64,000 nucleotides of DNA, taken from assembly GCA_963691765.1 (NCBI GenBank), contig OY829375.1; one strand, given 5' to 3'. Within the stretch, counting starts at the first letter, position 1, and every line of letters starts with the position of its first letter. The position numbers and the translations under genes were made by a program. This stretch comes from Ekhidna sp. GTDB lineage: Bacteria; Bacteroidota; Bacteroidia; Cytophagales; Cyclobacteriaceae. Below are positions 514 through 47,399 of this stretch, one piece after another. The notes below the pieces were generated by a model. The model did no database searches. It was not told where the DNA came from and worked only from the letters and a program-made list of their open reading frames with translations.

Positions 514-1905
514 CTACCAGTTCGTATGGAAGAAAACACCGCGCTTCGAGTCCGTTCTTTCATAGGTATGAGCACCAAAAAAATCACGCTGCGCCTGCAA
601 TAGATTAGCGGGTAAGTTGCCTGCGGTAATCCCAAGCCAATATTGATATGCCGAGGAGACAACAGGAGATGGGCTTTTAGCCTCTATCACATATTTTAAA
701 TATAGAGAGACCGCCTCCTCTGCTTGCGTAAGTTGCTCTAATGTATGCTTGGAATCAAAGAGGTCTTGTTGTTCTCTGAATAATGGGATCAATCTTTCCA
801 TTAGGCTTGATCGGATGATGCATCCGTTGGTCCATACTCTAGCTATTTCTGAGAGGTCAATGTCCCAGCCGTTTTTGTTTGACAATTCATTTATCAAAGC
901 AAAGCCTTGTTGATGATTGACAATTCTGGCAAATCGATAGGTATCTTCAATTATGCTCTCTTCAATATCCTGAATATTGACATCTCGCTTGACTTGTCTT
1001 GAAATTGCAACCCTGCGATCCTTCTGAGCTGATATATACCTAGCAAAAACTGCATCGGTCATCATGGTTGTGGCCATGCCATTCCCAAGTGATATCTGAC
1101 TCGACCATGACCCGGTTCCTTTATTTGCAGCTCGATCTAATATTAGATCTAACAGGTATTGATCTCCTTCCTTTTTTCTAAGGATCTGGACAGTAATACC
1201 AAGCAAGTAACTGGATAAATCAGATTTATTCCAGCTTTCAAAAATGTCTGATATTTCCTCGTTGGACTTGGTGTGTCTCATCACCTCATAACATTCAGCT
1301 ATGAGTTGCATCTCAGCATATTCTATCCCATTATGTATTGTCTTCACAAAGTTTCCAGCACCTCCCGGTCCTACAAAGCTGCAACACGGTTTTTCAGAAG
1401 CATCCTTGGCGGCGATACTCTCAAGTACTGGAGACACATTTTGATAGGCCTTTTTGGATCCTCCAGGCATGATAGAAGGTCCTTTCAAAGCACCTTCCTC
1501 ACCCCCGGATATGCCACAACCTAAGTATTGAATCCCATGCTCTTCAACTTTTGCAATACGCTTTTCGGTATCTAAATAATGTGAGTTTCCACCATCAATG
1601 ATGATATCATCCTTATCAAGGTAAGTGATCAACCCATCTATAACACTATCTACCGCAGGCCCCGCGCTTACCATGAGCAAGATCTTTCTTGGCGATTCTA
1701 GTGAATGGACAAAATCTTTTAATTCAGAGAATCCTATAACCAAATCCTGATGTTCATTCTCCTTCATAAAATCAGTCAGTAAATGAGCTTCTTGATCAGT
1801 ATTACGATTATATACAGAGAGGGAAAAGTTGTTTCGAAGGATATTCAATGCCAGGCTCTTCCCCATCACTCCCAGGCCGATTAATCCAAATGATGATTTA
1901 CTCAT
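514..1905 (-). CDS. gnd: 6-phosphogluconate dehydrogenase (decarboxylating)
   Basis: 463-aa ORF with an N-terminal Rossmann motif (GLIGLGVMGKSLALN) and Gnd-like core blocks (IHNGIEYAEMQLIAE). It overlaps the gntK stop by 8 nt. Confidence 0.93.
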   Translation of the reverse strand: MSKSSFGLIGLGVMGKSLALNILRNNFSLSVYNRNTDQEAHLLTDFMKENEHQDLVIGFSELKDFVHSLESPRKILLMVSAGPAVDSVIDGLITYLDKDDIIIDGGNSHYLDTEKRIAKVEEHGIQYLGCGISGGEEGALKGPSIMPGGSKKAYQNVSPVLESIAAKDASEKPCCSFVGPGGAGNFVKTIHNGIEYAEMQLIAECYEVMRHTKSNEEISDIFESWNKSDLSSYLLGITVQILRKKEGDQYLLDLILDRAANKGTGSWSSQISLGNGMATTMMTDAVFARYISAQKDRRVAISRQVKRDVNIQDIEESIIEDTYRFARIVNHQQGFALINELSNKNGWDIDLSEIARVWTNGCIIRSSLMERLIPLFREQQDLFDSKHTLEQLTQAEEAVSLYLKYVIEAKSPSPVVSSAYQYWLGITAGNLPANLLQAQRDFFGAHTYERTDSKRGVFFHTNW

Positions 1906-2383
1906 TTAGTAATTGTCTTAAGATGTTATTAATAATCGCATTGGGATCCTTTAAAATGTCCACTTTGATAGCATTTGCAGGCTCTTCTAAGATACTCAAT
2001 TGTGACTCAAGCATATTCGCCCCCATAAAATGATCATTGCGATTGAGCATCCTTTTTCTCAAGGTACGCTCAGATCCATGAAGGAAAATCCAGTTTATTT
2101 TTTCAACCGATGTCCCTAGTAAATCCCTATAAGATTGTTTTAATGCTGAACAGGTAAATACTGCTCCATACTTGTGCTCACTATCTTGTAAAAGGCCATT
2201 GATTCTCTTTAACCATGGCCTCCTGTCAAAATCATTCAATGGAATGCCTTTAGACATCTTCTCGATGTTCTTATCGGGATGATAATCATCCCCTTCATAG
2301 AAGGGCAGATTCAGTCTCTCCGCAATTCCTCTACCGATGGTGGATTTCCCACTGCCACTTACTCCCATGACAACTACTAGCAT
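1898..2383 (-). CDS. gntK: gluconokinase (P-loop, GntK/IdnK type)
   Basis: 161-aa ORF with Walker A GVSGSGKST and the size and motif order of gluconokinases. It is the first gene of the gntK-gnd-gntP operon. Confidence 0.88.
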   Translation of the reverse strand: MLVVVMGVSGSGKSTIGRGIAERLNLPFYEGDDYHPDKNIEKMSKGIPLNDFDRRPWLKRINGLLQDSEHKYGAVFTCSALKQSYRDLLGTSVEKINWIFLHGSERTLRKRMLNRNDHFMGANMLESQLSILEEPANAIKVDILKDPNAIINNILRQLLNE

Positions 2384-2425
2384 AATGAATTCAAGTTTGG
2401 TGTATTGAACTATTCAATTACACTC

Positions 2426-2490
2426 CAAACTTCATCAAGTAATGTGCTTCAAGACCAAGTGATTCGGTTCGTAATAGACTGGTGAATGTT
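2426..2490 (-). promoter_or_regulatory. putative promoter plus activator site of gntK-gnd-gntP: conserved 30-mer (2461-2490), 27-nt spacer, -7-like GAAGTTTG (2426-2433)
   Basis: In gene orientation the 30-mer is AACATTCACCAGTCTATTACGAACCGAATC. It is 27/30 identical to 10847-10876 upstream of susC and has exactly the same 27-nt distance to GAAGTTTG. Confidence 0.5.
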
Positions 2491-2502
2491 TCAAGCGAAT
2501 AC

Positions 2503-5500
2503 TTATTCGCTAGATTTCTGATAAATCTGCATCGGACCGTTATTATTTGCAATGACCAAAGCAGCCCTTCCATTCATTTCAATCACTGAAGAATGCTTAG
2601 CATCATGTTTGATTATCAGGCCACTTTCATTCATTGAAACAGGAGTAAATTCTCCATTGCCACTCCCCAGCATAAGCAGTCCAATACCTGCATCTGCACG
2701 AGGTGTCTCCACTTCGGAAGCGTGTAAATTTCCAATCAACAAAACATCTAGGTTTTCATCGCCATTCACATCCAATATCTGGATGTCATTTACTGGTGAT
2801 ATTTGAGCGATCTCAGGTAAGTCCAACGCTGTAAAACTTCCATCACCATTGTTTTGCAAATATTTACTAGCAAAAGTATTGGCGCTATAATGCAGTGAAC
2901 TAGAAAGGGCGTCTGTTCCAAAAATGTCTTGCACTGTTGCAGTTGAGAATGAATTGTAATCTTTAAATGCTGATTTAAGAGCTGGAATTTGTTGAGAAGA
3001 ACATTGTCTACCTCGCACTGGGAACTGAGCTCCAAAATTGTAATAGCTTAAGACTATATCATCCTTTCCATTTAGATCGAAGTCTTTTACAAAAACATCA
3101 AATGGTTCTTCCAGCGATGCTTTGTATTTATAGTTTTTTCCAAGATTCCCAAGTATTAAATCTTGATCCCCATCATTATCTATATCACCGCTTTCTAGAC
3201 TGAACCACCAACCTTTACTATCAGCTACTAATGTTTGAGGTGGCAGTAAACGCTCCCCTGTATTTTCAAACCACAACACATCCATCCACTCGCCAGCAAC
3301 GATCAGATCTTCAACTTTGTCATTATTAACGTCCATCCACAACGCATCAGTAACCATACCGGCTTTTGAGATTGTAGGAGCCAGCTCTTGCGTTTGATCT
3401 TCAAAAGTCAAAGTGCCTGTTTCCAATTTATTTACAAGTAAATGACTCGTACCAGGAAAAGGATAGTGCCTTGGCGACAACCGTCCTCCAACAAAGAGAT
3501 CTAGATCACCATCATTGTCAAAATCAAATGGTCGTATGCAACCTCCACTGGAGTAAAATTTAGGTAAGCTGGCAGACTCAATCAACTGACCATCCTCATT
3601 GAGAAATAGCTGATCTTGATAATTTCCTGAAAGACTGTCGTATTCATTCCCTCCATTCACCACATATAAATCGAGGTCTCCATCATTGTCAGCATCGAAA
3701 AACGTAGCGTCAATATTTTCATAATTTTCTCCCTCGAAGGTCTGAGCAGTAATGAAGGTGCCTATTGAAGTCTGGAGGTAGGTTTTCGGATTTTGGCCGA
3801 TAGCTGCGCCAATAAAAATATCATCCAACCCATCTCCATTGATATCTCCAGTAGCTAAAGCTGGACCGAGGTTGGACATTTTATGAGGCATTAGCACTTG
3901 AAATGCATAGTCATTGAAGTTGTTTTCTTTATGTATAAATAAAGAATCGACCGATTCATTTCTCGCTACGAATTGCGTTTGATTTTGAGAACTAGGTTGC
4001 TCAGAGTCCGAGCTTTCTTCTTGTGCTATCGAAATGGTTTGATTGCCTTGTACTCCAGCAATGGTAGAAACACCTCCATCGGGCCAGTTTACAACGATCG
4101 AATCCACACTATTTATTGATCCTAATCCGAAATGACTTATTGGTTCAACCGAAGACTGGAATCCACGACTTAGCATAACATGATTGGTTTGCTGAGAACC
4201 ATTTGCATAAATGGTAATCTTGCTTCCAATTCCATAGCTATTTGAACTTTTGCCTTTAAGTCTAACTCTAAGGAAATTCGACTTCCCTTGATCGTTCAAT
4301 GTGTTTTTATAAATCCAGCTGACTGAATCGATGTTATTTACTACCAAATCCAGATCTCCATCATTATCTAAATCACCATATGCACTCCCATTAGAAAATC
4401 CTTTTTGATCAAGATTCCAACTTTCAGTTTCGTTCGTAAATCCTATTTTCTTGTTGTTCAAATAGAAATAGTTTGCTACCGGTTCAGAAGGAATATTGAG
4501 GGCAGCTTCTAACAATTCTTGAGGAGTCATTTTACCCCTTTGACTTTCTATAGCATTAAAGTAATCCTTATTGTTGATCTCACGTCTTGTGCCATTGGTA
4601 ATGAATAAATCTTTCCAGCCATCATTATTAAAATCTGCAAATAACGGAGCCCAACTCCAATCAGTAGAAGTGACATTAGCCAAAGCTGCAATATTGCTTA
4701 GCACAGGCAGATTATTGTCAACCCCCCTATTTAGCTGGAGCGTATTGTACATGTACTGATAATGAAATCCATTATTGACGGTACTCCAGAAAAGAGAAAC
4801 ATCCATACTTGCCATATTAGCCTTAGATCTTCGATTGTCTTCGGCAGACATATCTACTTGGAAAAAATCCGTTAATCCATCATTGTTAATATCAGCAGCA
4901 TCGGCACCCATGCTGTAAAATGAGGTCTGCTTTGTGGTGGATTTTAATTGGTCTGTGAATGTGCCATCCCCGTTATTGATGAAGAAGTAATCCGGCGTAC
5001 TGAAGTCATTCGAGACGTAGATATCTTGCCAACCATCGTTGTTAAAATCAGCAACTGTCGCACTTATTGAAAGGCCAAAAGACAGAAGGCCTGCCTCTCT
5101 CGTGGCGTCCACATACTTCCCATTTCCATCGTTACGATATAGACGATCACTCTTTTCTTCAGTGACCGTATTCATGAGATACTTGTACTTAAAGTTTGGT
5201 GTCTTGAAACTGGTGATCGGGTAATTTGCTACATATAAATCCAAATCCCCATCATTATCATAATCAAAGAAAGTGGACTGAATGGAATTTCCATTGTCAG
5301 CGATCCCATATTCGGCAGCTTGTTCTGAGAATTGAAGCTCGCCTTCATTAATGTAGAGTAAATTTTTACGATTTTCTTGAGGACCTGAAACACTGACATA
5401 AATATCTTGTAAACCATCCTCGTTGATATCAACAACAGTAACTCCTGTATGCCATTTTTTATCGTACGACAGCCCCACACTTTCGGTGATATCCTCAAAT

Positions 5501-5796
5501 TTTAAATCTCCTTTGTTGAGGTAAATCTGATCGGAAACCATATTTCCTGTGAAGTATACATCAAGTAGTTCATCATTGTTCAGATCTACAAGAGCAACTC
5601 CACCTCCCATATATATGTATGGATATGTGAAGTAATTGAATGTGTCTGTTTCGGTCAGTTCATTAACAAAATGAATTCCTGAAGCTTCTGGGCTCACCTT
5701 AGAAAAACCTGCTTGACCATCGACTCTTTCCTCTGACTCACATGAAAGGATTGATAGCAAGGCGATGCAAGAGAAATACCTCCAGTACTTTTTCAT
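2503..5796 (-). CDS. FG-GAP/VCBS-repeat lipoprotein with central ASPIC/UnbV-like domain (CRTAC1-like)
   Basis: 1097-aa ORF with lipoprotein signal LLSILSC. It has many DxNxDGxxD repeats (DLNNDELLDVYF, DINEDGLQDIYV, DYDNDGDLDLYV, DFNNDGWQDIYV) and an ASPIC/UnbV-like segment (NFLRVRLKGKSSNSYGIGSKITIYANG). It is the third gene after susC-susD. Confidence 0.85.
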   Translation of the reverse strand: MKKYWRYFSCIALLSILSCESEERVDGQAGFSKVSPEASGIHFVNELTETDTFNYFTYPYIYMGGGVALVDLNNDELLDVYFTGNMVSDQIYLNKGDLKFEDITESVGLSYDKKWHTGVTVVDINEDGLQDIYVSVSGPQENRKNLLYINEGELQFSEQAAEYGIADNGNSIQSTFFDYDNDGDLDLYVANYPITSFKTPNFKYKYLMNTVTEEKSDRLYRNDGNGKYVDATREAGLLSFGLSISATVADFNNDGWQDIYVSNDFSTPDYFFINNGDGTFTDQLKSTTKQTSFYSMGADAADINNDGLTDFFQVDMSAEDNRRSKANMASMDVSLFWSTVNNGFHYQYMYNTLQLNRGVDNNLPVLSNIAALANVTSTDWSWAPLFADFNNDGWKDLFITNGTRREINNKDYFNAIESQRGKMTPQELLEAALNIPSEPVANYFYLNNKKIGFTNETESWNLDQKGFSNGSAYGDLDNDGDLDLVVNNIDSVSWIYKNTLNDQGKSNFLRVRLKGKSSNSYGIGSKITIYANGSQQTNHVMLSRGFQSSVEPISHFGLGSINSVDSIVVNWPDGGVSTIAGVQGNQTISIAQEESSDSEQPSSQNQTQFVARNESVDSLFIHKENNFNDYAFQVLMPHKMSNLGPALATGDINGDGLDDIFIGAAIGQNPKTYLQTSIGTFITAQTFEGENYENIDATFFDADNDGDLDLYVVNGGNEYDSLSGNYQDQLFLNEDGQLIESASLPKFYSSGGCIRPFDFDNDGDLDLFVGGRLSPRHYPFPGTSHLLVNKLETGTLTFEDQTQELAPTISKAGMVTDALWMDVNNDKVEDLIVAGEWMDVLWFENTGERLLPPQTLVADSKGWWFSLESGDIDNDGDQDLILGNLGKNYKYKASLEEPFDVFVKDFDLNGKDDIVLSYYNFGAQFPVRGRQCSSQQIPALKSAFKDYNSFSTATVQDIFGTDALSSSLHYSANTFASKYLQNNGDGSFTALDLPEIAQISPVNDIQILDVNGDENLDVLLIGNLHASEVETPRADAGIGLLMLGSGNGEFTPVSMNESGLIIKHDAKHSSVIEMNGRAALVIANNNGPMQIYQKSSE

Positions 5797-5812
5797 TTCG
5801 TTATCTATTTAA

Positions 5813-5848
5813 TAAAAAAGGGCAATTCCAATATAATTGAAATCGCCC
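5813..5848 (-). terminator. intrinsic terminator/attenuator hairpin between susD-like gene and FG-GAP gene
   Basis: On the minus-strand transcript GGGCGAUUUCAA-UUAUA-UUGGAAUUGCCC forms a 12-bp stem with two G.U pairs, followed by UUUUUUAUU. On the plus strand the same positions are A-C mismatches, which supports minus-strand function. Confidence 0.55.
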
Positions 5849-5868
5849 TGACCTGTTAAAAAACCTAA

Positions 5869-7551
5869 TTAGTTCCAGGCATCATTTTGCGTAAGGACTC
5901 CTCCACTTATATCTATAGCCCCGCTAGGTATAGGGAAAGTAAGGAACCTTTCAGCAAATGCTCCTGGATCGTATGCTGAGATTGTTCGTTGTTCGTTTGT
6001 TTCAAAATCTGATAAGATCTGCGTAGCATCAGTGGCACCATATCTTTTCAGATCAAAGAATCTGTGACCTTCCATTGCTAACTCCAACCGTCTTTCGTGT
6101 CTCACAGCAGCTATAGCAAATGCCTGATCAGCAAAAGCAGTATATGGCTCAACGTTGTAATTGATAGCATCACTTACTGGTGTCATATCTTTTGCTCGCT
6201 GTCTTACCTGATTTACATAGTTCAATGCAGTAGCCAGATCATTGGTCTCTGCTGCTGCCTCAGCAGCCATGAGCAATACATCTGCATAGCGAATCACATT
6301 GTAGTTTAGGCCTGAAGATTGCTGACCCCAAGGACCTGAACCCTGCGCATCTGAGAAGTCTGACTCTTTATAGGTGTTTTTCTTCGACAAGTATGGTCCA
6401 GAAGACCATGCTCCACCAGCATCTCTAATCCAGTCAGCTCCTGGGTTAAGTCCCCAGCCATTGAAATCAACTCCTCTTCTACCTACTGTATAGTCGATTC
6501 TTGGATCAAGCGGATCTGTATAAATGCTGAATGCCGCCGTGCTAAGAATCTCATTATCATTCGTGATATCACTGTCATTGTATGTATCTAAAAGCGGAAG
6601 ACCATCAGCTCCAGTTTTAAATGCATTCGCTAAATCTTGAGTTGGTTGGAAAAAACCACAGCAAGATCCATATGGACCTCCGGCAGGGTGATTAAGTGTA
6701 GAACCAAGGTTTCCGTTTTCTGTGCCGCTTGCTCCATCTTGAGCTGTGAACTGAATCGCAAAAACAGATTCCGATCCATTTTCTGTTGTAGACTTGAAGT
6801 TGTCTTCAAATTCAGTCTCCAATGAATAAGCACCACTTGTGATTACCTCATTCAGTACAGTAAGCGCATTACTGTATTTTCCTTGCTGTAATAATACCTT
6901 TCCTAAGTATGCTCTCGCTGACATTCCATTGGCTCGAATTGAAGCTGCTGCAGGAAGGTTATCGATAGCAAATTGGAAATCCGCCTCAATTTCAGCCCAG
7001 ATATCTCCTGTGTTAGCGATGTTAGCTGTTGTATCATCCTCCGAGATATATGGCACTTTATCCCAGCTTCTCTGCAATTCAAAATTGAAGTGTCCTCTGA
7101 GAAATCGTGCTTCTGCTACTAGGTCATCAACTCCTTCTACTCCTTCAGAATTGGCGATTACATTATTAGCGGTAACTACCCCACCAATAAGCGTTTGCCA
7201 TTTAGTTAGGAAATAAGGATTCGATGCATTGTAAGTATAGTTTCTGAGTTGCTCCAAGTCCGGCTGATCAGAAACATCACTTCCTTTGTGTGCATCATCC
7301 GTAATTACATCAAACCACCAGTTGTCAGGAGTACCTAACCACGGATCTCCTACATTATTACCATAAAGGTTCGCGTATGCATTTATTACAAAGAGCTCAA
7401 TTGCTTCTCTTGTAAAGTTGCCTTCAGCATCCTTTAAATTTTCTTCAGACAGTACCCCCTCAGCAGGAGGTGTTTCTGTGAACGCATCGTCACATGCCGA
7501 GTACAAAAAGGCTGTTAAAAGCAATGTTATTGACAATATTCTATTTTTCAT
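5869..7551 (-). CDS. susD: SusD/RagB-family nutrient-binding outer-membrane lipoprotein
   Basis: 560-aa ORF with lipoprotein signal LTAFLYSAC, 31 nt downstream of the SusC-like gene. It carries the SusD-type C-terminal block VRHERRLELAMEGHRFFDLKRYG. Confidence 0.9.
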   Translation of the reverse strand: MKNRILSITLLLTAFLYSACDDAFTETPPAEGVLSEENLKDAEGNFTREAIELFVINAYANLYGNNVGDPWLGTPDNWWFDVITDDAHKGSDVSDQPDLEQLRNYTYNASNPYFLTKWQTLIGGVVTANNVIANSEGVEGVDDLVAEARFLRGHFNFELQRSWDKVPYISEDDTTANIANTGDIWAEIEADFQFAIDNLPAAASIRANGMSARAYLGKVLLQQGKYSNALTVLNEVITSGAYSLETEFEDNFKSTTENGSESVFAIQFTAQDGASGTENGNLGSTLNHPAGGPYGSCCGFFQPTQDLANAFKTGADGLPLLDTYNDSDITNDNEILSTAAFSIYTDPLDPRIDYTVGRRGVDFNGWGLNPGADWIRDAGGAWSSGPYLSKKNTYKESDFSDAQGSGPWGQQSSGLNYNVIRYADVLLMAAEAAAETNDLATALNYVNQVRQRAKDMTPVSDAINYNVEPYTAFADQAFAIAAVRHERRLELAMEGHRFFDLKRYGATDATQILSDFETNEQRTISAYDPGAFAERFLTFPIPSGAIDISGGVLTQNDAWN

Positions 7552-7582
7552 TTTCTTGAATTTTAAATTCCTAATTCAACTT

Positions 7583-10500
7583 TTAAAAACCGGCTTTAAC
7601 TCCAATGGTGTAAACCTGAGTAAGAGGAAATCTTCCAAAATCAACACCCATACTTAAGTTCGGTTGTGCAGATGCATTTCTGTTTGTGATTTCAGGATCA
7701 AAGCCATTGTAATCAGTAATTGTGAAGAGGTTGGTGCCTTGAATGTAGACACGTAGACTTTCAAGACCTTTTACTGAAGAAAGCACACTTTGAGGAAGGT
7801 TATATCCTATCTGAAGGTTTTTCAACCTAACATAAGATCCATCCTCAACAAAATAACTGTTTGGATTAGTCTCACCATTGTCCGCTCCATTGCCATCTAA
7901 TGAAGGCAAGCTAGCACCTGGATTATTTGGTGTCCATGAATCTAAGATTCGAGTACTTCTATTACCATCAAACTGAGGAAAATCAGTGAAGAACTTTGTT
8001 TGATTATAAATTTCATTGCCCTGGCTGCCTGTTACAAATAGGGAAATATCAAAGTTTTTGTATTCCACGTAAGCGTTTAATCCAAAAACAAAATCAGGAT
8101 GTGGGCTGCCTAAGTTAGTTCTATCATCTGCATCGATATCTCCGTCTCCGTCCACATCTCTATATCTGAATCTACCTACACCGTCAGCATTGGTAGCAAA
8201 TCCTTGATCTGGACTATTAGCCACTTCAGTTTCATTCTGGAAAATTCCAATTACATCTAAGCCGTAGAAGTATGATATAGGGTTACCCACATCAGTTCTA
8301 GTAAATGATGACCCTCTATAAACATCTCCAGGGAATGATTCAGCACTTTCATCATTAAAAGCAACCAATTCATTTTTGTAAGCAGATACATTTGCTGTGA
8401 TATCATATTTCACAGCACCACCTTTTGAGTAGTTTCCGTAAGATATGCTCAAGTCAAACCCTCTGTTTTCCATCTCTCCGATATTTACAACTGGTGCGGT
8501 AGTAACTGCAGGAAGACCTGCAACTAGCGGAGCGAAAATCATATCTTCCGTATTGATTTTATAGATGTCTAATGACACATTCAAATCATTCTGAAGCATT
8601 CCAAAATCAACACCGAAGTTGATTTGTCTGGAAGTCTCCCATGTAAGATCAGGATTACCTATCTGCGTTTGAACGATACCGACTGCTTCGCCAGATCCAC
8701 TTCCATCTATGTCATATGCCGATTGTTCAGAAGCAAATCCAAATAGATCGACTGTCGGGTTAGATCTAGAAATCGACTGGTTTCCAGTTTCTCCAAAAGA
8801 GAATCGAAGCTTCAAGTTAGAAATCGTAGAATTTCCTTCGAGGAACGACTCTTTATGCACGGCCCAAGCTACACTCGCTGAAGGGAATACACCCGTATTG
8901 TTAGCATCAGTGAATCTTGAAGTTTGATCTCTTCTAACAGAGAATGATGCAAAATACTTTCTGTCGTAGTTATAGTTAAGGCTACCGAAAACTGAAGCAA
9001 GCGATGTGCTGATTTCTTCGTTTGGTCTACCGTTGGTAGGATCTCCAATTGGTACACTTATTTCTTGTGCTGCTTGAATTTGAACGAAGTTCTCAGTTTC
9101 TAAGAAGAACTCTCGACCAATCACTTGTCTTTTTGTGATTTGATCCTTAACTGATTCTACACCTATCAATGCTTTGAAGTTGTGGTTATCAAAACTCTTA
9201 GTGTAAGTAGCAGTATTTGACCAAACCCAAGAAAACTGCTCGTATGTATCTTCGGTCAACTGAGTCGTTGTAATAGGCTCCGAGTGCTCTGGGTTCTGCG
9301 GAGTGACAGTTCGTCTTCTATCAACTCGATTGTTGATACCTAGTGTAGTCTTAAATGTAAGATCCTCAATCGGATCAAATTCAAGGTACGCATCTCCAAA
9401 TGTTCTAAAGCTTTGTAGATTATTACCCAATGCATTTGCTCTTTCTAAGGCTGCAACTGGGTTCGCTGCATTTCCTAAACCAGCAACAGCATTACCTGCA
9501 AAATTTCCACCTTGATCCCTCACAGGTATAAATGGGTGAATTCTTGACGCAAGTGAGATTGGATTATCATCACTAGCTTCTCTAGGAATGTCCTGTTGGT
9601 TGCTCGTAGAAATATTTAAATGCTGACCAATTCTTAAATTGTCTAGTATATTGAATTCACTGTTGATTCTTCCACTGAACCTGTCATACCCGGTATTTAA
9701 TACTACACCTTCTTTATCTAGGTATCCAACAGACATCATGTATCTACCTCTGTCTGTTCCACCCTGAGCTGACAGGTAATAGTTTTGGAATGACGCTGGG
9801 TCAAATATTTCATCTACCCAATCAGTACCTCCTGAGCTTGTCGGAGTGATTCTGTTGGTGTCAAAGTTGTATGGCTGATTTTCATTAGGTGATCCTAAAT
9901 ATTGAGGGATTGTCCCATCACCAAAAGCATCTGCCCACTGCTGAGCGCTTAATAGATCTGGGAAGTTCGTTGGATTCTGCACCCCTGCAAAAGCTTCAAA
10001 GCTAAGTTTAGGTTTGCCAGAAACCTGACCTCTCTTGGTTGTAACAATTACAATACCATTTGAAGCTCTCACCCCATAGATCGCAGTTGATGCAGCATCT
10101 TTCAATACCTGGATACTTTCTACATCTGCCGGATTGATGTCATTCATGATTGTAGGATCAGTCGTTTGCATACCATCAATGATGTATAGTGGATCGTTGC
10201 CGTTAGGCGACGCAAATCCTCTAATTCTTACCTCCGGTGCTTCACCAGGCTGTCCCTGTGTAATGACGCTCACTCCTGGCGCTCTACCTTGAAGTGCTTC
10301 AGAAACGTTTGCTACTGGAAGCTTTAAAGCTTCAGCTACAGGTACCACCGCGATAGAACCCGTAAACTCTTCTCTTGACTGACTTCCATATCCAAGTACT
10401 ACTACTTCTTGTAAAGACTGTAAGTCGGTCTGTAGGTTAACAGCAATCGATGTCTGATTATTGATTGGTATTTCCTGGGTTTGGAATCCAATCGACGAAA

Positions 10501-10732
10501 ACACCAAGACATCAGATGATGACGCATTGATTGTAAAATTCCCGTCTACATCGGTTACGTCCCCACTGTTGGTGCCTTTGACTAGAATCGTAACTCCTGG
10601 CAATCCCTCTCCGTTCTCATCAGTCACTCTTCCTGATACTGTCTGCTGAGCAAGAAGGGTAAATGAAGACGCTAAAGAAAAGATTGCTAGTAGTGCAATT
10701 CTAACCTTTTGTAAAATGTAATTTTTCTTCAT
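7583..10732 (-). CDS. susC: SusC/RagA-family TonB-dependent outer-membrane transporter
   Basis: The ORF track gives 7583..10756 (MRIINSLIM...). I prefer the ATG at 10732 (MKKNYILQKVRIALLAIFSLASSFTLLAQQ, a clean signal peptide). It has a carboxypeptidase-regulatory-like domain (VSGRVTDENGEGLPGVTILVKGT), a plug and a long barrel ending in ...VKAGF. No STN domain is present. Confidence 0.92.
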   Translation of the reverse strand: MKKNYILQKVRIALLAIFSLASSFTLLAQQTVSGRVTDENGEGLPGVTILVKGTNSGDVTDVDGNFTINASSSDVLVFSSIGFQTQEIPINNQTSIAVNLQTDLQSLQEVVVLGYGSQSREEFTGSIAVVPVAEALKLPVANVSEALQGRAPGVSVITQGQPGEAPEVRIRGFASPNGNDPLYIIDGMQTTDPTIMNDINPADVESIQVLKDAASTAIYGVRASNGIVIVTTKRGQVSGKPKLSFEAFAGVQNPTNFPDLLSAQQWADAFGDGTIPQYLGSPNENQPYNFDTNRITPTSSGGTDWVDEIFDPASFQNYYLSAQGGTDRGRYMMSVGYLDKEGVVLNTGYDRFSGRINSEFNILDNLRIGQHLNISTSNQQDIPREASDDNPISLASRIHPFIPVRDQGGNFAGNAVAGLGNAANPVAALERANALGNNLQSFRTFGDAYLEFDPIEDLTFKTTLGINNRVDRRRTVTPQNPEHSEPITTTQLTEDTYEQFSWVWSNTATYTKSFDNHNFKALIGVESVKDQITKRQVIGREFFLETENFVQIQAAQEISVPIGDPTNGRPNEEISTSLASVFGSLNYNYDRKYFASFSVRRDQTSRFTDANNTGVFPSASVAWAVHKESFLEGNSTISNLKLRFSFGETGNQSISRSNPTVDLFGFASEQSAYDIDGSGSGEAVGIVQTQIGNPDLTWETSRQINFGVDFGMLQNDLNVSLDIYKINTEDMIFAPLVAGLPAVTTAPVVNIGEMENRGFDLSISYGNYSKGGAVKYDITANVSAYKNELVAFNDESAESFPGDVYRGSSFTRTDVGNPISYFYGLDVIGIFQNETEVANSPDQGFATNADGVGRFRYRDVDGDGDIDADDRTNLGSPHPDFVFGLNAYVEYKNFDISLFVTGSQGNEIYNQTKFFTDFPQFDGNRSTRILDSWTPNNPGASLPSLDGNGADNGETNPNSYFVEDGSYVRLKNLQIGYNLPQSVLSSVKGLESLRVYIQGTNLFTITDYNGFDPEITNRNASAQPNLSMGVDFGRFPLTQVYTIGVKAGF

Positions 10733-10811
10733 GATTAATGAATTAATGATTCTCATTGAAGTATGATTTCAAAACGCCATAGCGACTTTAGGTACATACT
10801 ATTTTCAACAT

Positions 10812-10876
10812 CAAACTTCAGATTTTTTGATTGAGAAAGGCATAGGGATTCGTTCCGTTATAGACTGGTGAATGTT
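10812..10876 (-). promoter_or_regulatory. putative promoter plus activator site of susC-susD-FG-GAP operon: conserved 30-mer (10847-10876), 27-nt spacer, -7-like GAAGTTTG (10812-10819)
   Basis: In gene orientation the 30-mer is AACATTCACCAGTCTATAACGGAACGAATC. It has the same architecture as 2426-2490. Confidence 0.5.
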
Positions 10877-10915
10877 GCATTAATTACAGTTTTGGAGTTG
10901 AAAAACGACGAATAA

Positions 10916-10930
10916 TTGCCAAAATGGCAA
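10916..10930 (-). terminator. weak hairpin after HTCS gene
   Basis: TTGCCA-AAA-TGGCAA (6-bp stem) lies about 20 nt after the HTCS stop and is followed on the minus strand by UUAUUCGUCGUUUUU. The structure is weak. Confidence 0.3.
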
Positions 10931-10950
10931 AAAATCAGGTGAAACATTTA

Positions 10951-13900
10951 TCATGCTTCTATTTCAGTTCCATATTCCGAAGGGTTCACCCCAAATTGTT
11001 TTTTGAAACAAAACCTGAAGTATTGAAGGTCATTGAAACCTACCTCATAGGTTATTTCAGAAATGGTCATCTCATTGGATTTAATCAGCTGAGCTGCCCG
11101 CTTTAATCTAATGGACCTAATGAGCTCATTAGCTGACTGACCAACTAGCCCTTTCAATTTGCGATAAAGCTGTGTTCTGCTTAACCCCATCTCTTTGCAA
11201 ACGTCATCGATGCTGAGGTCAGAATTAGACATATTTAATTCTATAAACTCAATAAGCTTGCGTAAAAATTCTTTGTCCTTAGAGACCACTTTGACCTCAC
11301 TAGGAGCAAGCTCAACATTGGTATGGTCCAGTAGTTGAGACTTCAGATTTTCCCGTGACTGTAAAATGTTTCGAACACGCAGCTCTAGTAATTTTGGATT
11401 GAATGGTTTAGTCACGTAGTTATCGGCTCCGATTTCAAAACCTTTCAGTGCACTATCGTTCGAAGCCTTGGCCGTTAGTAGAATGAATGGAATATGGCAG
11501 GTTTTATCATCAAGCTTTAGCGCTTTGCATAATTCATATCCATCCATTCGAGGCATCATCACATCGGAAATGATTATATCCGGAATTTCTTGTTGAGCAA
11601 TTTTCAAAGCTTTTTCTCCATCTTCAGCCTCCATGATGCGATAGTTAGAGATAAGGTGTTCGCTGATAAATAGTCTGATATCTTCATTGTCATCCACAAC
11701 CAATACGATTGGTAAATTTTCATTTTCTGGATCATCTTCAACCGTTTCTACATCAGATACATCCATAGGATGCCTTCGAACATAAGGTTCTTTTTCCTTC
11801 GAATGAAAATCATCTGCTATGTATGTTTTTTCCTCATCACTCAAGTGCTCGCCACCTTTTCTTAATTCAACGACAAACTTGGTCCCTTCTCCTTCTGTGC
11901 TTGTCACATTGATCACTCCTTTGTGCAATTCAACGAGCTCTTTGGTCAATGCTAGCCCAATTCCTGTTCCTTTCTTTTCCGTACTATCAATCTGATAGAA
12001 GCGATTAAATATCAAGTCAAGTTGAGATTTGGACATGCCAATGCCTGAGTCCTCAATTATCAACTGAATGGTCGATTCCTTTTCAACTATTGAGAAGTCT
12101 ATTTTTCCAAATTCCTGCGTGTATTTAAAGGCATTGGAAAGTAAGTTGACAATGATTTTTTCAAGTTTGTCTTTCTCAAAAAACAATGAAATGTCTTCCT
12201 CTGGAAACGTACACTTATAATCGATGTATTGTTTTTCCGCATACGTAGTAAAGGAATGGACAATAGGCTTCACAAATTTCACCAAATCTTGCCTGGAAGC
12301 TTGCAATTGCATGTGTCCAGCCTCCAGTTTTGATAGATCCAATAACTGATTGATCAAACTCAAAAGCCGATCTGCATTTCGAGCCATCATTTTATATTGA
12401 TTTTTGGGGTCGCCTTTGAAAAACCCATCGATCATGGATTTTAACGGACTAATAATCAACGTCAGCGGAGTTCTAAATTCATGAGAAATGTTGGCAAAGA
12501 ATCGAGATTTCATTGAATCGAGTTCTTTCATTTTCTCTAGTTCAATGTGTTCTATTGTGAGGTTTCTTCTAAGCCTTTCTCGTTTTATGAATAACCATCC
12601 AAAACCAAACAAGGCTGTCCCTATTAAAAGCGTATATATTATATACGCCAATGTTGTATTCCACCACGGCCTTTTAATGTGGATCTTTAAGACTGCAGCT
12701 TCTTCATTCCACTTCCCATCATTGTTTGATCCTCTGACCTGAAATTCGTAGTTGCCCGGTGGCACATTGGTATATCTTGCTTCTTGGTAGTTTGATGGCT
12801 CTATCCATTGATCATCATACCCCTTGAGCATATAGGCGATTTGATTCTTCGTGGATTTCGAATAATTGAGAATAGCATAATCAATGATAAAATCATTTGC
12901 TTCGTGCTCGAGCTCAACCCTCTTATCCTGATTACTTAGTTCAAGAATTTCTCCCAGATATATAGAATGATCTGGTCTTGTCTCAAACTCCATTGAGGTT
13001 ATAAATACATCGGGAATGTTATTATTAATGGTAAATGAGCCAGGAGTAAAATGATTAAAACCTTTTATGCCACCGAATAATAAATCTCCATTGGGGGCGG
13101 TAATTGCAGCACCTTTAATAAACTCTGAAGATTGAGCTCCATCCGTTTCGTCAAAAATTCTGATTGTATTGCTTGAGGTATTTAAAACTGACAAACCATT
13201 ATTCGTACTTAGCCACAGGTTGTCATTATCGTCTTCGGCAATGGCATAAATCAAATTGCTGGATAGTCCATCTTCTTTGGTAAATCGTTTAAAGGAATGA
13301 TCTTCTTTATCGTATCTATTCAACCCTCCACCTTCAGTTCCTACCCAGATGACTCCATTTTGGTCTTCGAAGATGATGTTGATGATGTTATGAGAAAGGC
13401 TTGATTCGTTGTCTTCCTCGTATTCAAAAAGCTGAGACTGTTTTAAATCATAGTTTTCATCAACCTGTACTTTATATAGACCATCACCTTCAGTGCCTAT
13501 CCATATATCTTCATTCGAATCCTGATAAATTACTGTTGGTCTTTCACTAGTTATTTGATTTAGCTCTTCATCAGATTGAAATAACTTTTTGAAGATGCGT
13601 TGGTCTTTCAAATAGACGCTTATTCCGGCTCTAAAGGATGCGGCCCAAATGTTCCCACGGTCATCTTCCATTAAATCGAAGAGTTGATTGCCACATGGTC
13701 CCAACTCCAACCTGCTTTTGTTATAGGTATAGGTGATGAAAGAACTTCCCTGCTTTTTCATCATCCCTCCCCAAGTCGCTAGCCAAAGGTCACCTTGCTT
13801 ATCGAGTAGAACATCCAATACTGCATTGCTACCTCCATGGGTTTCTAAATCAAATTTTTGATCCACAATACCATTGACTAAATCAAAGCGATTCAATCCA

Positions 13901-15042
13901 CCCCCGTCTGTACCCACCCAAACAAAACGACTATCAATCGCAGCAAAAGACGAAACCATGTTTTGACTAATCTCAGTATCAAGATTTGCCTTGTTGTAAA
14001 CATGCTTCATCCGCTGGTGATTAGGATCAACCTTTACTACTCCACCGTTGAATGTGCCAGCCCAAAGTATTCCAAGATCATCTACCAATAGCGACCAAAC
14101 CGAATTACTAATGATTGTACCTGTAGGATCTCTTAGTTGGTATTGACTAAGCTTTTGATTGGAAATGTTATAATAAAAAAGACCTCCATTTTCAGTGCCT
14201 ATCCAAAGATTACCATCAGCATCTTCAGCCATTGAAAGGACTGTGAGATCCATCAATCTTTGATAAACAGGATCTTGAGAATAAAGAGGTTCAAAATGAT
14301 ATTGATTGTTGCGATAGTTTATTCGAGCCAAGCCTTTGTCTAACCCTAACCAAAAATTTTGGCCTTTGAACATACATACAACATTGTCGGATTGTAATCC
14401 ACGTTCAGTAAGATCATACCGAGTAAAACTTGAACTACTCGGTGAATAAAGACTTAACCCTGACCATGTCCCAATCCAGATATTACCTTGATTGTCTCTT
14501 TCAATAGCAGTAGTGTGATTGCTAGAAAGGCTTTTATCATCATCAATATTGGACCAAAAACGGTCTACCTTGTTGGTGTTAAAATCTATCCGATTGATCC
14601 CTTTCGATTTTATGCCTATCCATAGGTTATTCCCCTCAAGCAATAAGCTTCCAGATGCATTGGCAGATATTGAATTTTCATCGTACGCGTTGTGCTTAAA
14701 TACATGAAACGTGTCCGCCGAATAGTCATATTTTAATACTCCAGAACCTTCTGTCGCAATCCAGATATCGCCGTTTTCGTCAAGCTCAATATCTCTTACA
14801 TAGCTCCCTTCCTTAAATACTTCACCATCCTTCTTTCTTGGAAAATGCTGATAGCTTATTCCATCGAATTTATTTAGTCCGTAGCGTGTGCCAAACCACA
14901 AAAACCCATACTGATCCTTTACTATCTTAGTTACGGACCCTTGAGAAATGCCTTTAGGCAATGGTTCAAAGCGAATGCCTTCTTGACTAAAAATTTCAAG
15001 GCTAAAACATAAAAACAGACCTAGGGGCAACGAAGAGCGCAT
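10951..15042 (-). CDS. hybrid two-component system sensor kinase/response regulator with AraC-type HTH (HTCS)
   Basis: 1363 aa with a signal peptide, a long beta-propeller/Y_Y_Y-type periplasmic region and a TM segment (LAYIIYTLLIGTALFGFGWLFI). It has an H-box (FANISHEFRTPLTLI), an HATPase domain (GTGIGLALTKELVELHKG) and a receiver (LVVDDNEDIR, IISDVMMPRMDG, LLTAK). The C-terminus is an AraC HTH. Confidence 0.93.
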   Translation of the reverse strand: MRSSLPLGLFLCFSLEIFSQEGIRFEPLPKGISQGSVTKIVKDQYGFLWFGTRYGLNKFDGISYQHFPRKKDGEVFKEGSYVRDIELDENGDIWIATEGSGVLKYDYSADTFHVFKHNAYDENSISANASGSLLLEGNNLWIGIKSKGINRIDFNTNKVDRFWSNIDDDKSLSSNHTTAIERDNQGNIWIGTWSGLSLYSPSSSSFTRYDLTERGLQSDNVVCMFKGQNFWLGLDKGLARINYRNNQYHFEPLYSQDPVYQRLMDLTVLSMAEDADGNLWIGTENGGLFYYNISNQKLSQYQLRDPTGTIISNSVWSLLVDDLGILWAGTFNGGVVKVDPNHQRMKHVYNKANLDTEISQNMVSSFAAIDSRFVWVGTDGGGLNRFDLVNGIVDQKFDLETHGGSNAVLDVLLDKQGDLWLATWGGMMKKQGSSFITYTYNKSRLELGPCGNQLFDLMEDDRGNIWAASFRAGISVYLKDQRIFKKLFQSDEELNQITSERPTVIYQDSNEDIWIGTEGDGLYKVQVDENYDLKQSQLFEYEEDNESSLSHNIINIIFEDQNGVIWVGTEGGGLNRYDKEDHSFKRFTKEDGLSSNLIYAIAEDDNDNLWLSTNNGLSVLNTSSNTIRIFDETDGAQSSEFIKGAAITAPNGDLLFGGIKGFNHFTPGSFTINNNIPDVFITSMEFETRPDHSIYLGEILELSNQDKRVELEHEANDFIIDYAILNYSKSTKNQIAYMLKGYDDQWIEPSNYQEARYTNVPPGNYEFQVRGSNNDGKWNEEAAVLKIHIKRPWWNTTLAYIIYTLLIGTALFGFGWLFIKRERLRRNLTIEHIELEKMKELDSMKSRFFANISHEFRTPLTLIISPLKSMIDGFFKGDPKNQYKMMARNADRLLSLINQLLDLSKLEAGHMQLQASRQDLVKFVKPIVHSFTTYAEKQYIDYKCTFPEEDISLFFEKDKLEKIIVNLLSNAFKYTQEFGKIDFSIVEKESTIQLIIEDSGIGMSKSQLDLIFNRFYQIDSTEKKGTGIGLALTKELVELHKGVINVTSTEGEGTKFVVELRKGGEHLSDEEKTYIADDFHSKEKEPYVRRHPMDVSDVETVEDDPENENLPIVLVVDDNEDIRLFISEHLISNYRIMEAEDGEKALKIAQQEIPDIIISDVMMPRMDGYELCKALKLDDKTCHIPFILLTAKASNDSALKGFEIGADNYVTKPFNPKLLELRVRNILQSRENLKSQLLDHTNVELAPSEVKVVSKDKEFLRKLIEFIELNMSNSDLSIDDVCKEMGLSRTQLYRKLKGLVGQSANELIRSIRLKRAAQLIKSNEMTISEITYEVGFNDLQYFRFCFKKQFGVNPSEYGTEIEA

Positions 15043-15159
15043 TTTTCAAAACTAATAAAGTAAAATGGAATAAATACCCGTCATCTTTGGATTAGGGTTC
15101 CATGCTATAATAGCACCCATTGATTGAATTTTGGATTCGAATACAAATAGCACTTTCGA

Positions 15160-17451
15160 ATGAACAACACAATGTCAAGATTTGAATTATCAAAAATTGC
15201 CTTCACCCTAGCAATTCTATTTTTTACATACTCCTGCAACTTCAAAAGTCCGGAAAAAAGTGAATTTGATGATCAAGTTTCATCACTGATATCAAATATG
15301 TCTTTAGAAGAGAAAGTGGGTCAGATGACCCAAGTGACAATTGATCTTATACTCAAGGATGATTCCAATACTGAGGTGGACCCTGAGAAATTGAGAACCG
15401 CCATTCTAAATAAAAAAGTTGGATCAATACTCAATGTAAAAGGCAATGCATATACACTCAAAGAATGGCATGCTATAATCAATCAAATACAAGATCTGGC
15501 AACCAGCGAAACACCGAATGCTATTCCTGTACTTTATGGCATTGATGCAATACACGGCGCTAGCTATATTCAAGGGGGTACACTTTTCCCACACAACATT
15601 GGAATGGCTGCCACTAGAAATCCTGACTTAGCTGCTCAGTCTGCAAATGTTACTGCTCTCGAAACCCGAGCTGCAGGAATCAGATGGAATTTTGATCCTG
15701 TCGTGGGTATGGGTAGAGAGCCATTATGGTCACGCTTTGAAGAAACTTATGGCGAAGATGTTTACTTGACAAGTAGCATGGGTGCTAGTGTTATTCAGGC
15801 ATACGAAAAAAATGACCTTAAGAAGACAGATGCCATTGCTTCGTGTATGAAGCATTTTATTGGCTATTCTGTCCCTGCCAGTGGTAAAGACCGAACGCCG
15901 GCCTATATTCCGGAAAGACAGCTCAGAGAAATCTTTTTACCTCCATTCCAGGCAGCTGTTGATGCAGGCACATCAACAGTTATGATTAACTCAGGCGAAG
16001 TAAATGGAGTGCCTGTTCACGGAAGCGAATTTTTCTTAAAATCAATCCTCCGTGACGAACTTGGTTTCAAAGGATTGGCTGTATCTGATTGGGAAGATAT
16101 CATTAGGCTACATACAAGACATAAAATAGCAGCTACTCCAAAAGAAGCAGTTAAAATAGCTGTCAATGCAGGGATAGATATGAGCATGATTCCACTGGAT
16201 TATTCATTTTACGACTACCTTGTTGAGCTCGTGAATGAAGGTGAAGTTAGCATGGCACGTATTGACGAAGCTGTTGGGAGAATACTTCAATTAAAATTAG
16301 ATCTTGGGTTGTTTGACAATCCTTTGCCAGAAAATGAGGCTATCAAAAACTTTGGGAAAGAAGAATTTAAAGATTTGGCTAAACAAGCTGCATTGGAGTC
16401 TATAACCTTATTGAAAAATGAGTCCAACATTCTCCCGCTAAGTGGTAACAAAAGAATCCTGATTGCTGGACCTGGAGCCAACAACATCCCAAGTTTGCAT
16501 GGCAGTTGGTCTTTTACATGGCAAGGAAACAATTCGAACTATTATCCTGAATCTACTCAAACAATAGTTGAGGTATTCAGCAGTTATTTTGCCGAGGAAG
16601 GATTTAATGGGAGTATCATTTCAAATGCCAATCCTGATTTTAACCATCCTGATAATTACAATACATCAAAATTGATCTCGGATGCAAAACTGGCTGATGT
16701 GATTGTACTATGTCTCGGAGAAAATTCATATGCAGAAGGGCCTGGTGTCATCGATGATTTGACATTAGATAAAAAGCAAATTGAACTTGCAAAAGCAGCT
16801 GCAAGTACTGGAAAACCTGTTGTTGTTGTTTTAGTCCAAGGAAGGCCAAGAGTAATATCTTCTATTGAGTCTGAAATGGATGCAATCGTAAATGCGTATC
16901 GCCCAGGGAGTCAAGGAGCATCGGCTATTTTAGATGTGCTAACTGGCACATATAATCCGTCAGGTAAATTGCCATATACCTATCCTAAAATGACTGGTGA
17001 CATTGTTTTATATGATCATAAGTTTTCAGAAACAATTAGAGAAGATCAACCAAACACATATGGCAGTGGTGCTTATCGACCGCAGTGGCCATTCGGGCAT
17101 GGCTTAAGCTATACCTCATTCGCGTATTCAGATCTTCAGCTAAGCACTACTTCAATCAAAGAGGATGGAGAAGTTGAAGTCAGCGTCAACGTGGCAAACA
17201 CTGGAGAAATTGAAGGACATCACACGGTAGAATTATATGTAAGTGATAGATATGCAAGCGTAACACCTAGCAATAGAAAATTGAAAGGTTTCAAAAAAAT
17301 AGCACTTGATGCAGGCGAGAGTAAGGTTGTTCAATTTAAATTGAAAGCTTCAGACCTTTCTTTTGTTGGCTTAGACAATGAATGGAGAACTGAAGCAGGA
17401 GAATTTGATATTAAAATTGGAAATCTAACTTCAACATTTAATTTGCAATAA
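15160..17451 (+). CDS. bglX: glycoside hydrolase family 3 beta-glucosidase (periplasmic lipoprotein)
   Basis: 763 aa with lipoprotein-type signal ILFFTYSC. It has GH3 blocks YGIDAIHGASY, MKHFIGYS and GLAVSDWEDII, and a C-terminal Fn3-like domain. A -7-like GAATTTTG lies at 15126-15133. Confidence 0.9.
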   Translation: MNNTMSRFELSKIAFTLAILFFTYSCNFKSPEKSEFDDQVSSLISNMSLEEKVGQMTQVTIDLILKDDSNTEVDPEKLRTAILNKKVGSILNVKGNAYTLKEWHAIINQIQDLATSETPNAIPVLYGIDAIHGASYIQGGTLFPHNIGMAATRNPDLAAQSANVTALETRAAGIRWNFDPVVGMGREPLWSRFEETYGEDVYLTSSMGASVIQAYEKNDLKKTDAIASCMKHFIGYSVPASGKDRTPAYIPERQLREIFLPPFQAAVDAGTSTVMINSGEVNGVPVHGSEFFLKSILRDELGFKGLAVSDWEDIIRLHTRHKIAATPKEAVKIAVNAGIDMSMIPLDYSFYDYLVELVNEGEVSMARIDEAVGRILQLKLDLGLFDNPLPENEAIKNFGKEEFKDLAKQAALESITLLKNESNILPLSGNKRILIAGPGANNIPSLHGSWSFTWQGNNSNYYPESTQTIVEVFSSYFAEEGFNGSIISNANPDFNHPDNYNTSKLISDAKLADVIVLCLGENSYAEGPGVIDDLTLDKKQIELAKAAASTGKPVVVVLVQGRPRVISSIESEMDAIVNAYRPGSQGASAILDVLTGTYNPSGKLPYTYPKMTGDIVLYDHKFSETIREDQPNTYGSGAYRPQWPFGHGLSYTSFAYSDLQLSTTSIKEDGEVEVSVNVANTGEIEGHHTVELYVSDRYASVTPSNRKLKGFKKIALDAGESKVVQFKLKASDLSFVGLDNEWRTEAGEFDIKIGNLTSTFNLQ

Positions 17452-20352: not shown

Positions 20353-20437
20353 TACCTCGGATGGGACTTGAACCCATACGACCGCAATGGTCACAGGATT
20401 TTAAGTCCTGCGTGTCTACCAATTCCACCACCGAGGC
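20353..20437 (-). tRNA. tRNA-Leu (anticodon TAA)
   Basis: The reverse complement is GCCTCGGTGGTGGAATTGGTAGACACGCAGGACTTAAAATCCTGTGACCATTGCGGTCGTATGGGTTCAAGTCCCATCCGAGGTA. It has a class II long variable arm, anticodon loop CTTAAAA and a T-loop GGTTCAAGTCC. CCA is not encoded. Confidence 0.93.
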
Positions 20438-20559: not shown

Positions 20560-20634
20560 TGAGCGGGAGACGGGATTCGAACCCGCGACCCCAACCTTGG
20601 CAAGGTTGTGCTCTACCAGCTGAGCTACTCTCGC
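20560..20634 (-). tRNA. tRNA-Gly (anticodon GCC)
   Basis: The reverse complement is GCGAGAGTAGCTCAGCTGGTAGAGCACAACCTTGCCAAGGTTGGGGTCGCGGGTTCGAATCCCGTCTCCCGCTCA. The cloverleaf is canonical with anticodon loop TTGCCAA. Confidence 0.93.
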
Positions 20635-47335: not shown

Positions 47336-47399
47336 CACCTCTGGAAATGAGGTGAATACTAACTTATTAAAATCTTAGGTGAAGAAGAAGGAGAAAAGG

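Follow-up and report, generated by a model that had tools for sequence, protein, structure and literature searches.

Which regulator, if it is a single one, acts on the nearly identical sequences found upstream of two separate operons in a polysaccharide utilization locus (PUL) of Ekhidna sp.? The locus lies within a 64-kb window of contig OY829375.1, which is the whole stretch of DNA analysed here; Ekhidna is a marine genus of Cytophagales (Reichenbachiellaceae). One of the two operons begins with susC and the other with gntK, and a 30-nt element precedes the predicted promoter of each. A sequence-only reading of the window had described both copies and had named the AraC-type hybrid two-component system (HTCS), encoded next to susC, as the obvious candidate binder. 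The analysis leads to the same protein: with a probability of about 75%, the 30-mer forms the central part of a 35-bp operator of the adjacent HTCS, its predicted binder. The direct observations concern the sequence of the element, its conservation, its repeat structure, its register to the promoter and its rarity.

The repeated element and its conservation

Copy 1 of the 30-mer, in the gntK promoter (AACATTCACCAGTCTATTACGAACCGAATC, positions 2461–2490, minus strand), and copy 2, in the susC promoter (AACATTCACCAGTCTATAACGGAACGAATC, positions 10847–10876, minus strand), are identical at 27 of 30 positions. In both cases exactly 27 nt follow before the octamer GAAGTTTG, and the minus-strand reading of the window bears out the earlier description of identity and spacing. 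When the window was searched with a degenerate 30-mer allowing up to three mismatches, only these two sites were found, with none in 100 shuffles. The similarity of the two copies is not confined to the 30-mer. It continues for 3 nt upstream (TGa/TGc) and 2 nt downstream, giving a unit of about 35 bp (a tandem site at 2459–2493 in the gntK promoter), and a repeat search stretches it to 43 nt at 81% identity. Additionally, the 27-nt spacer opens with a loosely conserved -33-like T(T/A)TG. The previous statement that the flanks and the spacer are unrelated was thus too strong in these places.

All sites were aligned on the first base of the box, which was set as column 62. In this anchored alignment, the upstream unit resolves into two 13-nt half-sites arranged as a direct repeat, at columns 2–14 (TGAAACATTCACC) and columns 24–36 (CGGAACGAATCCC), with a rough consensus of YGRAAY-N4-(A/C)CC. 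The starts of the half-sites are 22 bp apart, or about two turns of the helix. Compared with itself, the upstream 45-nt stretch is most similar at a shift of 22 (0.44 versus a background of about 0.25); the column-permutation z score of this peak is 3.8 (p ~1e-4) for the susC/gntK class of sites and 3.7 for the class of sites upstream of the GH3 gene described below.

In the gntK promoter, half-site 1 (TGAAACATTCACC, 2481–2493, minus strand) would lie at about -72 to -60, and its TG..A and ACC columns are invariant across orthologs. Half-site 2 (CGAACCGAATCAC, 2459–2471, minus strand), which begins 22 bp past half-site 1 at about -50 to -38, has a conserved G.AAC and terminal C. It is directly followed by a -33-like TTGG (2455–2458, minus strand) and, further downstream, by the -7-like box GAAGTTTG (2426–2433, minus strand). 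The susC promoter is built in the same way on the same strand, with half-site 1 (TGCAACATTCACC, 10867–10879), half-site 2 (CGGAACGAATCCC, 10845–10857), a -33-like TATG (10841–10844) and the box GAAGTTTG (10812–10819). A sigma-54-like GG-N10-GC pattern over the half-site and -33 region was considered and rejected by eye, since the spacing is 13 rather than 10.

The canonical -33 element of Bacteroidota, TTTG, lies about 19–21 nt upstream of the -7 box. Columns 37–40 of the Ekhidna susC/gntK sites, 21 nt before the box, read TTGG, TATG, TTTG, TGTG or GTTG. The -33-like motif is short and degenerate; it is weak or absent in the sites upstream of GH3, and elsewhere the match is weak at best (CATG in locus L005, CACC and CTCC in loci L006 and L012, and CCTA in locus L013; these loci are described below). 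In the mapped sigma-A promoters of Flavobacterium psychrophilum, the -7 box TAnnTTTG is located at -12 to -5 (PMC9723704). Because the -7-like box was placed at the same position, the 30-mer falls at about -69 to -40, in agreement with the activator position that had been proposed for it, and transcription is predicted to start near 2421 for gntK (leader of about 38 nt), near 10807 for susC (about 51 nt) and near 15138 for GH3 (about 22 nt).

Promoters of extracytoplasmic function (ECF) sigma factors include, for example, the Bacillus subtilis sigma-W consensus TGAAAC-N16-CGTA. The sequence-only reading had offered an ECF promoter, TG(A/C)AAC-N16-CG, as an alternative interpretation of the element; transcription would then start in or just after the 30-mer, and the GTTTG box would be part of the leader or of a second promoter. 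Several Ekhidna sites do read TGAAAC-N16-CGNAAC. This likeness to sigma-W-type promoters is superficial, however, because conservation across orthologs does not fall on the matching bases: L005, L006, L012, L013 and every GH3-class site have TG in place of the CG, and the -35-like hexamer varies (TGCAAC, TGCATT, TGCACT, TGAATC, TGGAAT). The second "hexamer" is a repeat of the first at 22 bp, and the fixed 27-nt spacing, the invariant GA.GTTTG box and the -33-like motif are all left unexplained. No conserved CGT is present, unlike in the flavobacterial ECF motif with its CGT at -10 (PMC9723704). Moreover, the locus contains no gene for an ECF sigma, an anti-sigma or a FecR-like protein, and its SusC has no STN domain. 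An ECF promoter is therefore a very improbable explanation of the element.

HTCS orthologs with identities ranging from 86% down to 45% gave access to the orthologous loci (the L series); for the gntK product of the window, a search for an exactly matching protein had been negative. The composite of 30-mer, 27 nt and GA[A/T]GTTTG is found upstream of susC and/or gntK in L001, L002, L003, L004, L007 and L015, with a single site among L001–L004 and L007 having a spacer of 26 instead of 27 nt. L015 was retrieved after the model had been set up, and all three of its promoters fitted. The element marks the susC and gntK operons in seven Ekhidna genomes, two of them with shuffled gene order, which supports the proposal that the two operons belong to one regulon. 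In these two, L004 and L007, the HTCS gene is directly followed by gntK-gnd-gntP, susCD-FG-GAP is found elsewhere, and each operon has its own copy. Since the shuffled operons each retain a copy, the element tracks operons rather than position.

Several differences in layout were seen among the close relatives. The gene order of the PUL is shuffled among Ekhidna species (window positions 514–18479 compared with L004 and L007), and in L004 and L007 a second GH3 gene and a major facilitator superfamily (MFS) sugar transporter gene come after HTCS-gntK-gnd-gntP. A gntK operon is missing from the vicinity in L002, whose genome contains no close gntK ortholog. In L003, the FG-GAP coding region runs, at its 3' end, into half-site 1 of the gntK element.

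The more distant orthologs have HTCS identities of 61% (L005), 54% (L006 and L012) and 45% (L013). The arrangement ACC-N47-GAAGTTTG upstream of susC is kept in them and the centre of the 30-mer is changed; in these HTCS-orthologous loci, down to 45% identity, gntK is not nearby and the susC copy is kept. GA.GTTTG is invariant in nine orthologous susC promoters. In alignments of the whole intergenic regions, every invariant column is within the composite (half-sites, spacer and box), where the half-sites and the box account for almost all such columns; the flanks are unalignable. One further candidate ortholog, L014 (HTCS identity 46%), lies beside a sulfatase gene and lacks the composite, and was treated as a paralog.

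A 38-bit degenerate pattern of the composite was used to scan one genome for each of 185,579 species. A single match, at susC, was found in the 4.85-Mb Ekhidna chromosome OZ253940.1, and two matches, at susC and gntK, were found in a fragmented, near-identical and probably conspecific metagenome-assembled genome (MAG). Another match, within a coding region of a MAG labelled Bacillales, is a chance match. The match in OZ253940.1 is single because this chromosome has no close gntK ortholog; for the same reason, it offered no unlinked gntK operon with which to probe trans-regulation.

These data bear on two further readings of the element: a duplicated stretch with no regulatory role, left over from a promoter duplication or belonging to a small dispersed repeat, and an element that acts as transcribed RNA. 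Two near-identical copies 8.4 kb apart may indeed reflect a recent duplication. The copies are nonetheless conserved at orthologous positions while the flanks have diverged beyond alignment, and in the two scanned genomes of the Ekhidna lineage (the 4.85-Mb chromosome and the fragmented MAG) all matches are at promoters, so that the sequence does not behave as the common dispersed repeat that would have undercut the original proposal. No Rfam match at E<=1 was obtained in positions 1–21000 apart from two tRNAs, and no stable fold is predicted, with z scores between +0.6 and +1.0 for the elements by themselves and between -0.4 and +0.2 when their leaders are included. Duplication or an RNA function is accordingly the least credible of the explanations weighed here, with only a slight chance of being correct. 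The two tRNA genes (20353–20437 and 20562–20634, minus strand) lie just past the PUL.

The GH3-lactonase promoter and the -7-like box

The operon for a GH3 enzyme and a lactonase is divergent from the HTCS gene, and its promoter had been reported to lack the element. This is correct in terms of identity, as the agreement with the 30-mer is only 14/30. It is not correct in terms of architecture, since a diverged version with the same period and register is present. The variant half-site 1 (TGGAATAAATACC, 15066–15078, plus strand) shares bases with the -33 region of the divergent HTCS promoter, and the variant half-site 2 (TGGATTAGGGTTC, 15088–15100, plus strand) comes 22 bp after it, giving TGGAATAAATACC-N9-TGGATTAGGGTTC followed by the -7-like box GAATTTTG (15126–15133, plus strand). 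The ACC-N47-box distance equals that of the susC/gntK sites, and is constant in the window, L001–L004, L007, L015 and L005, where the box is GAATTTTA. The two half-sites of the GH3-class site in L006, TGGAATATTTACC and TGGAATAGTTCCA, are identical at 10 of 13 positions.

Box-anchored profiles of the GH3 and susC/gntK classes match best at offset 0 (0.44 versus 0.26, z score 4.9, 0 of 20,000 permutations). A half-site matrix derived from the susC/gntK sites, applied across the window to pairs 22 bp apart, recovered only the two known sites. Because the matrix misses the GH3 site, its membership rests on architecture and register, not on sequence. The GH3 element is probably a diverged, lower-affinity site of the same kind as the susC/gntK sites. 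Occupancy of its half-site 1, given the overlap with the divergent promoter, could also autoregulate the HTCS gene.

The box itself has the form GA(A/T)(G/T)TTTG, usually preceded by T, with G at position 1 in all susC/gntK sites and in the Ekhidna GH3 sites. It matches TAnnTTTG at seven of eight positions and fails at position 1. The HTCS gene has a canonical -7 box of its own, TAGTTTTG (15047–15054, minus strand), with T at position 1 and only 4 nt (AAAA) between the box and the ATG. This TAnnTTTG-AAAA-ATG arrangement is kept in the Ekhidna genomes (L001–L004, L007 and L015), and a 5-nt spacer is found in L005. Because a box at -12 to -5 puts the start of transcription on the A of the ATG, the HTCS mRNA is predicted to be leaderless. 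Judging by the same conserved arrangement, the HTCS start codons called in L003 and L007 appear to be too far downstream.

Position 1 of the box was also compared in promoters beside unrelated HTCS genes, where T occupies it in 61 of 91 boxes and G in 11. Since T prevails there, G at this position is specific to the regulon and is no general HTCS feature. With the Bacteroidota sigma-A promoter (PMC9723704), the regulated promoters share the A..TTTG of the box and the typical distance of 22–51 nt to the start codon, and a -33-like T(T/A)TG may be recognized 21 nt upstream in the Ekhidna susC/gntK sites; they differ from it in having G instead of T at position 1 and a degenerate -33 element. The contrast between the defective box of the regulated promoters and the canonical box of the HTCS gene would fit a dependence of the former on an activator.

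In the gntK promoters of the window (2393–2403/2422–2432) and of L001 (18617–18625/18631–18639), inverted repeats overlap both the -7-like box and the predicted start, as does a palindrome at 15130–15147 in the GH3 promoter. Their sequences vary from species to species, and a 5' hairpin, a repressor site or chance in AT-rich DNA could each account for them.

The adjacent HTCS as predicted binder

The HTCS is the only regulator whose gene is present in all loci compared, and both of its helix-turn-helix regions are invariant in ten orthologs, with whole-protein identity down to 45%. The structure of the element also points to this protein, in keeping with the candidate originally named. For 16 Bacteroides HTCSs, comparative genomics predicted sites in which direct repeats are spaced by 21 bp on average (PMC3878776, Ravcheev et al. 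2013, RegPrecise), and DNase footprinting of BT4124 identified half-site pairs about 21–22 bp apart, bound by AraC-type domains tethered to a dimeric kinase (PMC13292587). The Ekhidna element is likewise composed of two direct-repeat half-sites 22 bp apart, compared with half-sites of about 13–16 bp with spacings of about 21–22 bp in Bacteroides. It thus displays features of an HTCS operator, namely a tandem direct repeat of 21–22 bp, a location beside susC, the PUL and an AraC-type HTCS gene, and conservation together with the HTCS ortholog. It differs from the Bacteroides operators in its host, a marine member of Cytophagales rather than a gut Bacteroides, and in its half-site sequence, which is unrelated. 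It also keeps a strict register, exact to the nucleotide, with a -7-like box whose first base is always G; this, again, is no general trait of HTCS-adjacent promoters.

The spacing was further evaluated in an aggregate check of 88 distinct candidate promoters beside 80 unrelated metagenomic HTCS genes. A direct-repeat signal was detected at a shift of 21, in the same interval of -74 to -30, with a z score of 4.4. The metagenome search, which relied on generic histidine-kinase peptides, had returned only paralogs of 28–39% identity, few of them with a complete downstream susC, and these were used for aggregate tests only. One such unrelated locus, L031, contains four TGTAAC half-sites with an exact 21-bp period (about 7640–7736) upstream of a -7-like box.

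Five observations weigh against the assignment of the element to the HTCS, or against parts of it. The likeness of the two half-sites within any single site is modest (5–8 of 13 positions). The half-site matrix leaves the GH3 site outside the top 15 in the window. Overlap with the divergent HTCS promoter could by itself account for the conservation of GH3 half-site 1. The strict G at box position 1 is not accounted for by an HTCS-operator model. Finally, HTCS homologues that are more distant (42–44% identity) have almost the same DNA-binding domain, and because their helices are near-identical, the invariance of the helix-turn-helix regions is a weak argument for specificity.

Some of these points also leave room for a different trans-acting regulator, with its gene at another place in the genome, such as another AraC/XylS-type protein, a response regulator or a gluconate-responsive factor, with the role of the HTCS being indirect or nil. 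The failure of the susC/gntK matrix to detect the GH3 variant would allow for more than one factor, and the near-identical DNA-binding domains of distant HTCSs mean that another HTCS could cross-bind. On the other hand, every locus with this HTCS ortholog, down to 45% identity, also has the element in its conserved geometry, and no other regulator gene is conserved in the loci compared. A 22-bp tandem direct repeat is moreover the signature of HTCS sites (PMC3878776, PMC13292587). The element also lacks the palindrome expected for sugar-acid repressors of the GntR or LacI type. A different regulator is therefore considered unlikely, and the adjacent HTCS remains the predicted binder.

Class II activation by AraC/XylS proteins, as for araI1-I2 at araBAD, RhaS and XylS, involves two direct-repeat half-sites, the proximal one of which abuts or overlaps the -35 equivalent of a weak promoter. 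The Ekhidna sites have the same layout, with half-sites about two helical turns apart and the proximal one abutting the predicted -35-equivalent element. The Ekhidna promoter differs in being of the Bacteroidota -33/-7 type, and dimerization would be provided by the membrane histidine-kinase part of the HTCS instead of a soluble ligand-binding domain. BT4124 acts as a repressor (PMC13292587), whereas activation is predicted for the Ekhidna HTCS.

Which protein binds, where transcription starts, that regulation is by activation and what the inducer is are all inferred, and a possible mechanism is as follows. Binding of an oligosaccharide by the periplasmic sensor would lead to phosphorylation of the receiver, which would free the DNA-binding domain. 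In a membrane-anchored HTCS dimer, one AraC-type domain would contact each half-site through its two helix-turn-helix units. The promoter-proximal half-site would end at about -38, against the weak -33-like T(T/A)TG, with the box fixed 21 nt further on. The bound dimer would then recruit or stabilize sigma-A RNA polymerase at otherwise weak promoters, in a class II, AraC-like manner.

Gene content and possible substrate of the proposed regulon

The Pfam gene map agrees with the gene context previously assigned to the two copies. The first operon (2503–10756, minus strand) consists of susC (7583–10756), in which only CarboxypepD_reg, Plug and barrel domains were identified, susD (5869–7551) and an FG-GAP/UnbV_ASPIC protein gene (2503–5796), with intergenic gaps of 31 and 72 nt. 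The FG-GAP/UnbV_ASPIC (CRTAC1-like) protein, of about 1,100 residues, is the constant third member of the susCD operon, and its gene downstream of susD is a tandem duplicate in L006, L012 and L013. The second operon (514–2383, minus strand) contains gntK (1898–2383), encoding a gluconokinase-like P-loop kinase, and gnd (514–1905), encoding 6-phosphogluconate dehydrogenase. The gntP gene is outside the window edge; it is next in relatives, coming after gnd in L004 and L007. A terminator scan of 2384–2502, between the FG-GAP gene and gntK, detected no intrinsic terminator, so that gntK may also be transcribed by read-through from the susC operon, besides from its own promoter.

The HTCS gene (10951–15042, minus strand) encodes a propeller/Y_Y_Y sensor, HisKA, HATPase and receiver domains and an AraC helix-turn-helix domain (about 10972–11199). 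The encoded protein is 100% identical to one that NCBI assigns to Ekhidna sp. The candidate third operon (15160–18479, plus strand) contains the gene for the GH3 beta-glucosidase (15160–17451) and that for the SMP-30/gluconolactonase-like lactonase (17451–18479). Elsewhere in the window, a tyrosine recombinase gene (XerC/D-like or of the phage-integrase family) is found at 46451–47338.

The lactonase gene is the most constant neighbour of the HTCS gene, and GH3, GH5 or GH9 enzymes are encoded in several loci. L005 (19107–24080) contains genes for two SGBP_B_XBD surface glycan-binding proteins and a GH9 enzyme with a type IX secretion system (T9SS) tail, and L007 (2553–6474) contains those for a GH5 cellulase and a Kelch/DUF5060 protein. 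These extra genes of the relatives point to a beta-glucan or cellulose-type substrate. The content of the regulon suggests the harvest of beta-glucan fragments with aldonate or lactone ends, such as the products of oxidative cellulose or beta-glucan cleavage. No description of a PUL for oxidized (aldonate-ended) glucans was found in a literature search.

Given the element before both susC and gntK, and its diverged copy before the GH3-lactonase operon, three functions would be brought into one regulon: outer-membrane import, periplasmic trimming together with lactone opening, and cytoplasmic catabolism of gluconate. A more specific model, put forward here tentatively and with the odds against it as a whole, is that of a PUL for C1-oxidized beta-glucan oligosaccharides, ending in an aldonic acid or a lactone. 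The HTCS would drive three phase-locked promoters, for susCD-FG-GAP import, for GH3 and the lactonase, and for gntK-gnd-gntP; the TGAnnTTTG box would be a purpose-built, activator-obligate variant of the -7 element, recognized jointly with the HTCS; and the third site, back-to-back with the HTCS gene's own, predictedly leaderless promoter, would add autoregulation.

Compared with the Bacteroides cases, the host lineage, the strict register with a G-variant -7 box and the content of the regulon are new. The extension to a cytoplasmic operon for a kinase, a dehydrogenase and a permease is uncommon, as it was seen in only 2 of the 16 HTCS regulons of PMC3878776. All predictions and footprints of HTCS operators in the literature found come from gut Bacteroides. 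The present locus provides a candidate operator defined by comparative genomics in a marine member of Cytophagales, with predictions at the level of single bases for half-sites, register and transcription starts. A single sensor would tie SusCD import to a GH3 enzyme, a gluconolactonase-like enzyme, and gluconate kinase, 6-phosphogluconate dehydrogenase and permease. Furthermore, TAnnTTTG at the HTCS gene and GAnnTTTG at the regulated promoters form a natural contrast, which may show how activators offset a defective -7 element with the unusual sigma-A of Bacteroidota.

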